Part shown: positions 8,512 to 10,434 of the stretch, in pieces | Numbering within the stretch: position 1 is the stretch's first letter | How the letters are laid out: every line of letters starts with the position of its first letter | Made by a program: the position numbers and the translations under genes | Notes under the pieces: model-generated | Seen by the model: only the letters and a program-made list of their open reading frames with translations | The model's database searches: none | What the model was told of the DNA's origin: nothing | Assembly: GCA_019694465.1 (NCBI GenBank) | Contig: JAIBBV010000002.1 | Span: 1-64,000 of the forward strand | Length of the DNA: 64,000 bases | Direction of reading: 5' to 3' | Source: Oligoflexia bacterium | Lineage (GTDB): Bacteria; Bdellovibrionota_C; UBA2361; JAFLCA01

Positions 8512-10434
8512 TCAAGCTGCCCCAAGCAGTTTTAGCGTTAGCGCAGGCTGCAGATTCGCCTGAGCTAGGAGTGCCGTCGCAGATTGCTGACGAATTTGCA
8601 ATCGTAAGAGATTAGCAGCCTCAGATGCTACATCTACATCGGTAATGCGTGATTCAGCAGCTTTATACAGATCTGTTGATGTGGAAAGTAGCCGGCTGGC
8701 GGACTCTAGCCGACTCATGCCAGAACCAATCGTTGCGCGCATAGAATTCAGACGATCAATATTATCGAGAGCATTTTCAAGTGCGCCGCGGGCTCCAGTT
8801 TGACTAGTAAGTGCGAAGCCGCCAAGCCCACGGATAGTGCTCTCGATTGCGCCTAGTGCTGTGCTAATCGAGCTAGCCGCTCCCCCTCCCGCTTCTATGT
8901 TTAGTGATGTTGATGTGCGTCCCAAGTCATAAGTAAAGAGCTCATTGGCTGAAGTGTAGAGATTAGAAACCGCTGCCATGTAGTTGCCATCAGCCGAGAA
9001 CGCGTAGGCCGTTACTACATCGATCGAAGTAAAGTTAGTTGCTTGTTCCACTGCCCCAGTAGAAGTGTCAATTTTGTATGCTTGTAAACTTGTGGGGCCG
9101 CTGGGGTTCCAGGATAAGGTGGAGGCAACCAGCAGGATTGAGCGCCCGTCGGTAGATAGAGTTGGCTGCAATAGATCGTCTGAGGTTTGATTGTTTGTTA
9201 ACTGTGATAGAGCAGAGGTTGCGAAGCGGTACTTATAAATTTGCGGATTCAGTGAGGCATTCTGAGAGGCGAGGTTGTAAGATGATTTCCAGAATATCTC
9301 GCCTTGATCAGAAACTAGTGCAACTGGCACCTCTCCACCAGTAGAGGTTGTAGCTTGCTTTATTGATGGAGTGCTGCCGCGTAAGTCGACTGCGAAAAGC
9401 TCCGCATTGCCGTCGGCGTTAGTTCCAAATGGATTGTAAAGTGAGGAGAATGCTGCAAACTTTCCAGTCGGGCTAAGGCTAACATAGCCATGTACCGCCG
9501 CGCTATTTTCGTTGATTGCTCTGACCTTACCAGTGTAGGCGTTGAAAGTATAAATACCCCATGTTCCACCGGCACTGGCTCCGTTCCATACTGTCCCACC
9601 ATCGACGTAGTCCATGTTGGATGAAATCGCAAAAGTGCTGCCGTCCGCACTCATTGCTGCTCCAACAAAGATTGTGCCCACCTGATTATTTGTAACCTGG
9701 GTTACTGTGTTTGAGTTTCTATCCCAGCGGAAGAGCTGCTCTGTTCCAGATGCATTTTGTCCCGTTAGATTAGCAGCATTCCGGAAGCCTACTACGCTTC
9801 CAGAGGTGTCAATGTAAATTTCATTTGGTGCTGTAACACCAGCAGCTACTAGCGTTACTGCGCCGCTGTCGGTATTAACTTCCTTAATTGCCCCGGCAAC
9901 TGAGTCATAGTAGGCGATGTATTTTCCATTGGCATTAACGGCGAAGTGCGTGCCCACACCAGAACCACTTCCAACACTAGTAAGTTGCCTATAGGTCATG
10001 CTTGTTGCTTGTTGCCCCTGTAGCACCGCAACGTCGTTAAACTTTGTGCTCTTTGCTAGGCGGGATATTTCTTGGGTTAGCGCCTGGTATTCGTTGTCAA
10101 GCGACTGGCGCTGCGTGTCGCTCAAACTTCCGTTAGCAGCTTGCTGTGCTAGTTCAGACATGCGCTGGAGGACGCTGCCAATTTCAGCACTGACACCATC
10201 TGCAACCTGCAATGCCGAGATGCCATCATTCACGTTCAGGACAGCGCGACCAGATATGCGCGCTTTTGCATTCAAGCCCGAAGCAACAGCCAGACCAGCA
10301 GCATCATCGCCAGCGCCATTAATGCGCAAACCACTCGAGAGACGTTCGTACGTCTTGCTCAGTGAGCGCGATGTAGCGCCAAGCTCACGCACAACGCGGA
10401 GCGCGCTGATATTTGATCCTATCGTTACTGCCAC
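8512..10434 (-). CDS. fliC: flagellin (FliC family) with an enlarged central domain resembling a PD40/TolB-type beta-propeller; GTG start
   Basis: N-terminus LSSGLRINGAGDDAAGLAVASGL...NDGISALQVADG and C-terminus DVASEAANLLRLQIRQQSATALLAQANLQP match flagellin N/C (D0/D1). The central ~400 aa contain repeats such as LSPTGKFAAFSS..AELFAVDLRG, LSTDGRSILLVAS, FSADGNYMAAVSN. Confidence 0.8.
   Translation of the reverse strand: MAVTIGSNISALRVVRELGATSRSLSKTYERLSSGLRINGAGDDAAGLAVASGLNAKARISGRAVLNVNDGISALQVADGVSAEIGSVLQRMSELAQQAANGSLSDTQRQSLDNEYQALTQEISRLAKSTKFNDVAVLQGQQATSMTYRQLTSVGSGSGVGTHFAVNANGKYIAYYDSVAGAIKEVNTDSGAVTLVAAGVTAPNEIYIDTSGSVVGFRNAANLTGQNASGTEQLFRWDRNSNTVTQVTNNQVGTIFVGAAMSADGSTFAISSNMDYVDGGTVWNGASAGGTWGIYTFNAYTGKVRAINENSAAVHGYVSLSPTGKFAAFSSLYNPFGTNADGNAELFAVDLRGSTPSIKQATTSTGGEVPVALVSDQGEIFWKSSYNLASQNASLNPQIYKYRFATSALSQLTNNQTSDDLLQPTLSTDGRSILLVASTLSWNPSGPTSLQAYKIDTSTGAVEQATNFTSIDVVTAYAFSADGNYMAAVSNLYTSANELFTYDLGRTSTSLNIEAGGGAASSISTALGAIESTIRGLGGFALTSQTGARGALENALDNIDRLNSMRATIGSGMSRLESASRLLSTSTDLYKAAESRITDVDVASEAANLLRLQIRQQSATALLAQANLQPALTLKLLGAA

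Follow-up and report, generated by a model that had tools for sequence, protein, structure and literature searches.

Flagellin outer domains, which usually occupy the loop between the N-terminal and C-terminal parts of the D1 domain (ND1 and CD1), are a known hotspot of domain co-option, and to our knowledge almost all of those studied are small Ig-like or beta-folium domains. Here we describe a flagellin gene whose product carries, in this loop, a domain predicted to fold as a seven-bladed beta-propeller of the PD40 class. The gene lies in a stretch of 64,000 nucleotides (nt), referred to as the window, that comprises positions 1 to 64,000 of contig JAIBBV010000002.1 in the metagenome-assembled genome (MAG) GCA_019694465.1 of an Oligoflexia bacterium. 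A propeller as flagellin outer domain is an idea that has already been seen, computationally only, by Fields et al. 2024 (Nat Commun 15:9500, PMC11532411), who grouped 16,948 AlphaFold flagellin models, drawn from AlphaFold-database (UniProt) entries, into 682 outer-domain clusters. They reported 'WD40-repeats in cluster #55', noted non-flagellin cellular homologues and suggested co-option, with no experiments, and they designated cluster #15 as 'flagella_HEXXH' (PMC11532411). Our literature searches on flagellin with a beta-propeller or PD40 returned nothing relevant beyond that study, and no flagellin-PD40 paper.

The family described here resembles cluster #55 in having an outer domain predicted by AlphaFold as a beta-propeller and non-flagellin homologues that point to co-option. 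Compared with the cluster as it is described, it differs in belonging to the PD40 class by sequence, with no match of the window protein to the Pfam WD40 signature even at E up to 10, and in being seemingly confined to uncultured Bdellovibrionota. Since the members checked are absent from UniRef, the family is probably outside the dataset of Fields et al. In regard to flagellinolysin-type flagellins, the window protein likewise has a large non-canonical globular domain at the D1 loop, on every subunit, but a predicted propeller in place of a metallopeptidase fold, with neither HEXXH nor conserved catalytic residues. Among propellers, TolB combines six blades with an N-terminal alpha/beta domain. 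Bdellovibrio bacteriovorus, from the same phylum-level lineage, has flagellin genes dispersed around the chromosome, and their products are short (under ~300 amino acids, aa) and lack a large outer domain. Its several flagellin paralogues per genome, the six flagellins FliC1-6 (PMC2791853), find a parallel in the at least two paralogues of the MAG studied here, and its flagellum is membrane-sheathed (PMC2791853, PMC7175336).

Flagellin core and insertion site

The open reading frame (ORF), found exactly where the earlier note had placed it and containing every peptide string quoted there, starts with GTG and corresponds to GenBank record MBX7142916.1 (K1X79_00545, 'hypothetical protein [Oligoflexia bacterium]'; exact match P0001). 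Flagellin_N (PF00669) matches aa 6-142 with 112.2 bits against a cutoff of 26.6 (E 2.6e-32, profile positions 2-138 of 139) and Flagellin_C (PF00700) matches aa 557-637 with 61.4 bits against a cutoff of 23 (E 1.1e-16, profile positions 6-86 of 86), so that flagellin D0/D1 domains, as had been suggested, are recognised at both ends over the full profile length. Flagellins are also the best solved relatives of the protein (E down to 4.5e-41), and the best NCBIfam flagellin model reaches 173.3 bits (E 7.8e-51), compared with 77.5 bits (cutoff 127.2, E 1.3e-21) for the FlgL model TIGR02550. By its domain content, as read from the sequence, the protein is a flagellin outside any curated NCBIfam subfamily. 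The inserted segment has no counterpart in 22 flagellins of 271-288 aa and sits in the loop between ND1 and CD1.

The insertion as a predicted PD40 propeller

The 380-residue insert was shown by alignment and profile comparison to be homologous to stand-alone PD40-repeat proteins. When the central 406 residues were searched separately, the matches were the protein itself, two other flagellins of ~640 aa (42-45 % identical) and six non-flagellins (P0004-P0009; E 4e-28 to 1e-13). For these six, the precomputed Pfam matches are to PD40 and the tricorn propeller, and two of the proteins are named 'Tol biopolymer transport system component' by JGI. These stand-alone proteins, which are closer to the insert than any other non-flagellin homologue (28-32 % identity), have signal peptides and other domains (DUF11, N-terminal domains) and are built of highly regular, near-identical 48-52-aa repeats (…S.DG..IAF.S.A.LTG.NADGN.EIFLYD….LTQ.TN…). 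The Pfam PD40 score of P0004, which matches the flagellin middle at E 4e-28, is 89.8 bits. In a joint alignment the flagellin blades pair one to one with the repeats of the stand-alone proteins and have the motif …LTG.NADGN.E.F.YD… in common with them, but they are far more degenerate, with an additional loop in blade 3. This loop holds a DYVDGG motif that is invariant in three close members, its strict conservation being confined to the closest members. Furthermore, a one-blade hidden Markov model (HMM) trained solely on the stand-alone PD40 proteins gave seven matches to the flagellin middle at ~50-aa spacing, strong in blades 2, 4 and 5 and partial in blades 1, 3, 6 and 7. The matches add up to 80.6 bits, whereas none of 200 shuffles of the region scored above 5.3.

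In a sequence search against solved structures, a profile of three flagellin inserts matched TolB (7mx5) best, at E 7e-6. TolB proper was nevertheless ruled out as the identity of the domain by the seven blades, by the missing TolB N-terminal domain and by the weak match to the TolB equivalog NF003124 (16.1 bits against a cutoff of 428, E 0.0037). Compared with TolB and the other PD40 propellers (PF07676), which include those of S9 peptidases, tricorn, the trilobed protease and oligogalacturonate lyase, the window domain is inserted in a flagellin loop and has no periplasmic or protease-gating setting, and no peptidase domain is attached to it as in the PD40 proteases. On the window protein alone Pfam PD40 scores 19.7 bits (E 8.3e-4), 1.2 bits short of the cutoff of 20.9, with the best stretch at aa 260-279 in blade 3. 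Because this single-protein score falls below the cutoff, we base the assignment to PD40 on the homologues together with the blade HMM and the fold.

The central region is predicted with high confidence to fold as a seven-bladed beta-propeller. A first AlphaFold2 run on a 9-sequence alignment produced ~28 strands in the middle at a predicted local distance difference test score (pLDDT) near 80, and poor D0/D1 domains (pLDDT 30-60); Foldseek matched this model to propellers only (oligogalacturonate lyase at E 3e-13, TolB at E 2e-12). It was superseded by a run on 42 sequences, comprising family members and short flagellins, with a mean pLDDT of 85.7 and a predicted template modelling score of 0.78. 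In the latter model the D0/D1 helices are canonical (9-33, 41-100, 106-129 and 545-638), and between residues 160 and 514 they enclose seven four-stranded blades, mostly at pLDDT 90-96 (Table 1). The earlier note had proposed five to seven degenerate PD40-type blades, possibly closing into a propeller of six or seven blades between the D1 helices. Both the blade HMM and the predicted structure settle this number at seven and support a PD40-related middle in place of a conventional D2/D3 fold, with overwhelming flagellin similarity of the termini. Of the three Pfam families named there, the two flagellin families score above their cutoffs and PF07676 does not.

Table 1. Coordinates of the flagellin gene, its domains and blades, and its upstream elements in the window
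Feature	Position	Strand	Details and basis
Conserved upstream block, putative sigma-28-type -35/-10 pair	10492..10532	minus	16-nt spacer; sequence and family comparison
TAGCCAC box of upstream block	10532-10526	minus	
TAAC box of upstream block	10519-10516	minus	
GTCGATTT box of upstream block	10499-10492	minus	
Ribosome-binding site GGAAG	10443..10447	minus	9 nt before GTG start; from sequence
Flagellin ORF	8512..10434	minus	640 aa plus stop; complete gene
N-terminal D0/D1 helical core, aa 1-150	9985..10434	minus	Pfam, model helices, alignment with 22/22 short flagellins
Outer-domain insertion, aa 151-530 (propeller and connecting strands)	8845..9984	minus	alignment occupancy
Predicted blade 1, aa 160-198, turn N-A-N-G	9841..9957	minus	DSSP strands 160-166, 172-177, 182-187, 193-198; weak blade-HMM match 165-175
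Predicted blade 2, aa 206-246, …NLTGQNASGTEQLFRWD…	9697..9819	minus	strands 206-208, 214-219, 233-238, 243-246; blade-HMM 40.0 bits, 1.4e-14
Predicted blade 3, aa 256-311, S-A-D-G turn	9502..9669	minus	strands 256-261, 267-275, 287-298, 303-311; blade-HMM 259-277
Predicted blade 4, aa 315-360, LSPTGKFAAFSS…NADGNAELFAVD	9355..9492	minus	strands 315-320, 326-331, 345-350, 357-360; blade-HMM 23.5 bits
Predicted blade 5, aa 372-411	9202..9321	minus	strands 379-384, 398-403, 408-411; blade-HMM 23.0 bits
Predicted blade 6, aa 421-464, LSTDGRSILLVAS…YKIDTSTG	9043..9174	minus	strands 432-438, 450-456, 462-464; partial blade-HMM 453-471
Predicted blade 7, aa 476-514, FSADGNYMAAVSN…ELFTYD	8893..9009	minus	strands 476-479, 485-490, 498-503, 509-514; partial blade-HMM 480-491
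C-terminal D1/D0 helical core, aa 531-640 plus stop	8512..8844	minus	Pfam, model helix 545-638

The PD40-flagellin family

An exhaustive HMMER search with the insert profile against 1.84 billion cluster representatives gave 5,477 matches, 114 of them with E <1e-30, and the top 150 include ~30 proteins of ~620-675 aa in which the match begins near residue 155. Among 32 such candidates scanned, Flagellin_N and Flagellin_C occur together in 28, and PD40 is found at E up to 1e-3 in 20 (best 1.1e-14); the annotated database holds ~20 full-length members. All members looked up are metagenomic, none of them is present in UniRef, and the named sources are 'Oligoflexia bacterium', 'Bdellovibrionales bacterium' and 'Bdellovibrionota bacterium'. 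The family appears confined to uncultured Bdellovibrionota. A contig scan with very narrow peptide patterns returned a single locus, a result that says little about taxonomic breadth. The proteins are annotated as 'hypothetical protein', 'flagellin' or 'FlgL-like', and one (P0024) as 'PD40 domain-containing protein'.

A second member, MBX7144586.1 (K1X79_09065), has the locus-tag prefix of the window flagellin, and the MAG therefore holds at least two paralogues. Identity between the two is 51 % for the core and 28 % for the propeller, and the mean pairwise identities in the family are 47.7 % and 26.9 %, respectively. A conserved core with a variable outer domain is the usual flagellin pattern. 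Within the propeller, the residues conserved across 20 members are the structural S-x-D-G turns of each blade only, with no conserved cluster of His, Cys, Glu, Lys or Arg, and neither of the two His residues of the window flagellin, which has no Cys, is conserved in the family.

Propeller-type repeats were also observed in other flagellins. Many flagellins of ~600-735 aa (P0175, P0176, P0181, P0182, P0186, P0188 and others) carry FG-GAP (PF01839) and FG-GAP_3/VCBS (PF13517) repeats between Flagellin_N and Flagellin_C. The proteins match the window protein over the D0/D1 core only (20-34 % coverage). FG-GAP repeats form beta-propellers but show no sequence relationship to PD40, and their presence suggests that flagellin recruited a propeller-type domain a second time, independently. 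In the search listing they look more numerous than the PD40 family. In the locus of a distant PD40 member (P0171; L006, 636-3582 and 16680-19442), three proteins with weak or faint FG-GAP matches lie within 10 kb of the PD40 flagellin.

Upstream region and genomic context

The block upstream of the gene (Table 1) has counterparts in the family. Six of the eight family loci with DNA show, at identical spacing, TAGC(C/G), CGAT 31 nt later and a TAA(C/T) that precedes the NNCGATNN octamer by 16 nt; a seventh has TAAA-N16-GGCGATGA, and an ordinary short flagellin whose protein core is related has TAAG-N15-GCCGATCT upstream. On both strands of the window the strict pattern occurs once, directly upstream of the flagellin. 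The block resembles a sigma-28 promoter, for which the consensus is TAAA-N15/16-GCCGATAA. As a detector, the canonical TAAA-N15-GCCGATAA pattern, with up to three mismatches allowed, gave 77 matches in the scan compared with 58.6 expected, none of them upstream of the flagellin, and it was replaced by the comparative upstream alignment. Upstream of the flagellin, no sigma-54-type site was seen by eye and no site was found in the sigma-70 scan, and no terminator was found between the anti-sigma gene and the flagellin. Sigma-28 control of the gene is plausible.

A conserved TAGCC(C/A)C box, located upstream of the putative -35 element and at a distance of exactly 35 nt from the CGAT -10 core, was observed in six loci (the window, L001, L003, L005, L007 and L008), in the form TAGCGTC in L007 and ATGCCAC in L005. 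The genes flanking these loci are unrelated, the box matches no regulator site known to us, and it was not found in the locus of an ordinary short flagellin (L010/L011).

Pfam scans of ORFs of at least 150 aa, together with inspection of smaller ORFs in the gaps, detected no other flagellar gene in the window, in agreement with the earlier note. The sulfatase, extracytoplasmic function (ECF) sigma factor and anti-sigma genes that it had placed upstream of the flagellin are present as described. Along the window, the flagellin is preceded by FtsJ, MlaEFDC, an M48 peptidase and a Cys-rich secreted ORF, and followed by an HxxxCxxC anti-sigma protein, an ECF sigma factor and a sulfatase fused to a LamG domain. 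We considered whether these last three are functionally linked to the flagellin and rejected the idea, as the neighbours differ in every relative. Because the neighbourhoods of the relatives are unrelated to that of the window, the proximity of the sulfatase and ECF genes looks coincidental, and solitary placement is a trait of the family, flagellar genes being mostly missing from the relatives' neighbourhoods.

In the locus of the closest relative (P0011, 53 % identical; L007), the gene immediately upstream of the flagellin is flgE, which encodes the flagellar hook protein. A search with this FlgE found MBX7143166.1 (P0279, 'flagellar hook protein FlgE [Oligoflexia bacterium]', 91 % identical), with an accession that falls between those of the two K1X79 flagellins. 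From this sequential GenBank numbering we infer that the same MAG encodes the hook. The FlgE proteins of the K1X79 MAG and of L007 (8319-9722) are thus 91 % identical, yet the propeller flagellins are 53 % identical (45 % in the propeller) and their contexts differ. Either the two flagellins are paralogues, in which case the MAG may hold a third copy beside its flgE, or else the hook evolves far more slowly than the flagellin.

Proposed role and alternative explanations

As a whole, we consider it likely that the window protein is a filament subunit with a co-opted seven-bladed PD40 propeller as its outer domain, serving as a non-enzymatic scaffold. By analogy with established flagellin biology, the protein would be exported unfolded through the flagellar type III channel and polymerise via D0/D1 into the 11-protofilament core, while the propeller would fold at the filament tip and then project outward, one per subunit, giving a propeller-coated filament. 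Filaments have a rise of ~4.7 Å per subunit and a D1 radius near 60 Å, and a rough geometric estimate leaves ~2,300 Å² of surface per subunit at a radius of 80 Å. A propeller ~45-50 Å across and 25-30 Å thick should fit, the filament then being, again roughly, ~18-22 nm in diameter. Because only the S-x-D-G turns are conserved while the propeller surfaces diverge quickly, a rigid, variable and fast-evolving scaffold appears most likely, for which filament stiffening or protection, surface or ligand binding, and antigenic and phage-receptor variation are candidate roles. The gene would probably belong to the flagellar regulon and be expressed from a sigma-28-type promoter of its own, and the organism would probably employ its product together with one or more paralogues, comparable to the six flagellins of Bdellovibrio.

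Several points weigh against this explanation. Filament assembly of the window protein is an extrapolation from its domains, and both folding of the propeller under the filament cap and clash-free packing in the lattice are assumed. Every NCBIfam flagellin cutoff is missed (e.g. 173 vs 332 bits), the matched part being the termini only. Here and in seven of the eight relatives with neighbourhoods that were read, the gene is solitary and has neither fliS nor fliD close by, and the placement of FlgE in the MAG comes from accession numbering and not from the assembly. The canonical TAAA-N15-GCCGATAA is unmatched upstream of the flagellin at up to three mismatches, and the proposed promoter has a 16-nt spacer and just the CGAT core. 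Moreover, a membrane-sheathed flagellum, if present in the lineage, would be hard to reconcile with a surface-binding role.

In regard to other explanations, D0/D1 could serve only for export, as in a secreted adhesin, or only for a minor structural position (hook-filament junction or cap-proximal zone), so that the filament would not be fully coated with propellers. We regard this as unlikely, although the gene is solitary and distant from flagellar genes in most loci, at least two paralogues exist in the MAG, and TIGR02550 matches at E 1.3e-21. Some relatives bear the JGI label 'flagellin-like hook-associated protein FlgL', which we take to be a generic COG name for flagellins. Bdellovibrio filaments also use several flagellins in different zones (PMC2791853). 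On the other hand, flagellin models outscore FlgL models by a wide margin (173 vs 77.5 bits), D0 and D1 are both present in full and have the near-invariant core positions common to filament-forming short flagellins, and in the closest relative the flagellin gene follows flgE.

An enzymatic flagellin like flagellinolysin, in which a catalytic propeller (e.g. an oligogalacturonate-lyase-like polysaccharide lyase or a CylK-like alkylating enzyme) would be displayed thousandfold along the filament, seems very unlikely. A common enzymatic activity is improbable because conservation is restricted to the S-x-D-G turns and the protein has two His residues, neither of them conserved. With two His and no Cys, neither HEXXH nor a multi-His metal site is possible; identity to candidate enzymes is just 10-16 %, and the sulfatase neighbourhood is not kept in the relatives. 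The earlier suggestion of a large ligand-binding or enzymatic platform on every subunit is therefore upheld as to the predicted propeller and judged improbable as to the enzyme, for which no conserved catalytic residues are found. Finally, an artefact, either a chimera of a flagellin and a PD40 gene created by the MAG assembly or a conventional D2/D3 domain whose PD40-like motifs arose by chance, has a negligible probability. The metagenomic source and the PD40 score below the Pfam cutoff on the window protein alone would be compatible with it, but it is already refuted by the family data.

If a filament subunit with a propeller scaffold is indeed what the gene encodes, a further-reaching and rather doubtful picture would be that of an uncultured Bdellovibrionota clade whose filament surface is a continuous lattice of seven-bladed propellers. 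Such a lattice could form a proteinaceous sheath and, as a multivalent surface, could bind prey envelope, polysaccharide or particles; the flagellum would then be adhesive or sensory, with divergent paralogues of different specificities or antigenic types. Together with the FG-GAP flagellins, beta-propellers would then have been recruited into flagellin at least twice independently. A closed propeller of ~350 residues (~37 kDa, estimated) would test the limit of size and topology for a domain exported unfolded and refolded at the tip, and as a display scaffold it would be natural and highly multivalent. That every subunit of a filament should carry a large closed propeller is striking and experimentally unexplored, although no longer unprecedented, and it opens no long-standing question by itself. 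The computational 'WD40 flagellin' observation gains a concrete family that is defined by sequence, can be placed taxonomically and comes with paralogues and a candidate promoter. The family is mis-annotated in GenBank ('hypothetical protein', 'PD40 domain-containing protein'), and its recognition as flagellin improves the annotation of motility in Bdellovibrionota MAGs.

Other features of the window

Downstream of the flagellin by 266 nt and on the same strand lies a 184-aa Cys-rich ORF with an N-terminal signal-like segment (7691-8245, minus), for which no Pfam match was found at E up to 1e-5. The stretch between the two contains a sigma-70-like site (8391-8364) and a hairpin that resembles a terminator (8283-8269). 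In two syntenic relatives (L001/L002 7797-9797 and the P0002 locus), an AsnB-type glutamine amidotransferase is located directly upstream of the flagellin. The AsnB of the window (35335-37380, plus) is 42 % identical and lies 25 kb from the flagellin, within a 20-39 kb glycosyltransferase/Wzy/flippase cluster. As a link to flagellin or surface glycan modification this was judged too weak to use, and it may be a coincidence.

Further along, the window holds a cluster of 20 kb for polysaccharide biosynthesis as well as ParAB, the genes for ATP synthase, a PilB-type ATPase and RecJ. The cumulative GC skew climbs across the window, the skew itself being mostly positive, and Rfam and tRNA scans of the window found nothing. 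The window is core chromosomal DNA, and the flagellin therefore lies outside any obvious mobile island. At 47603-55912 (plus), parA and parB are followed directly by the B subunit, delta, alpha, gamma and beta genes of an F-type ATP synthase, as identified by Pfam, and by an epsilon-like ORF recognised by eye (55933-56349). A 686-aa SPFH/Band 7 protein (16430-18490, minus) has four repeats of ~50 aa in its N-terminal half (…G.(K/R)GPQ(I/L)..L.PGTY.IN…F), and Pfam covers its Band 7 part only (aa 358-540). Between parB and the ATP synthase genes, two ORFs overlap almost completely in antisense (49602-50180, minus, and 49606-50082, plus), of which the plus-strand ORF (159 aa) looks bactofilin-like by eye and its minus-strand partner is probably spurious.

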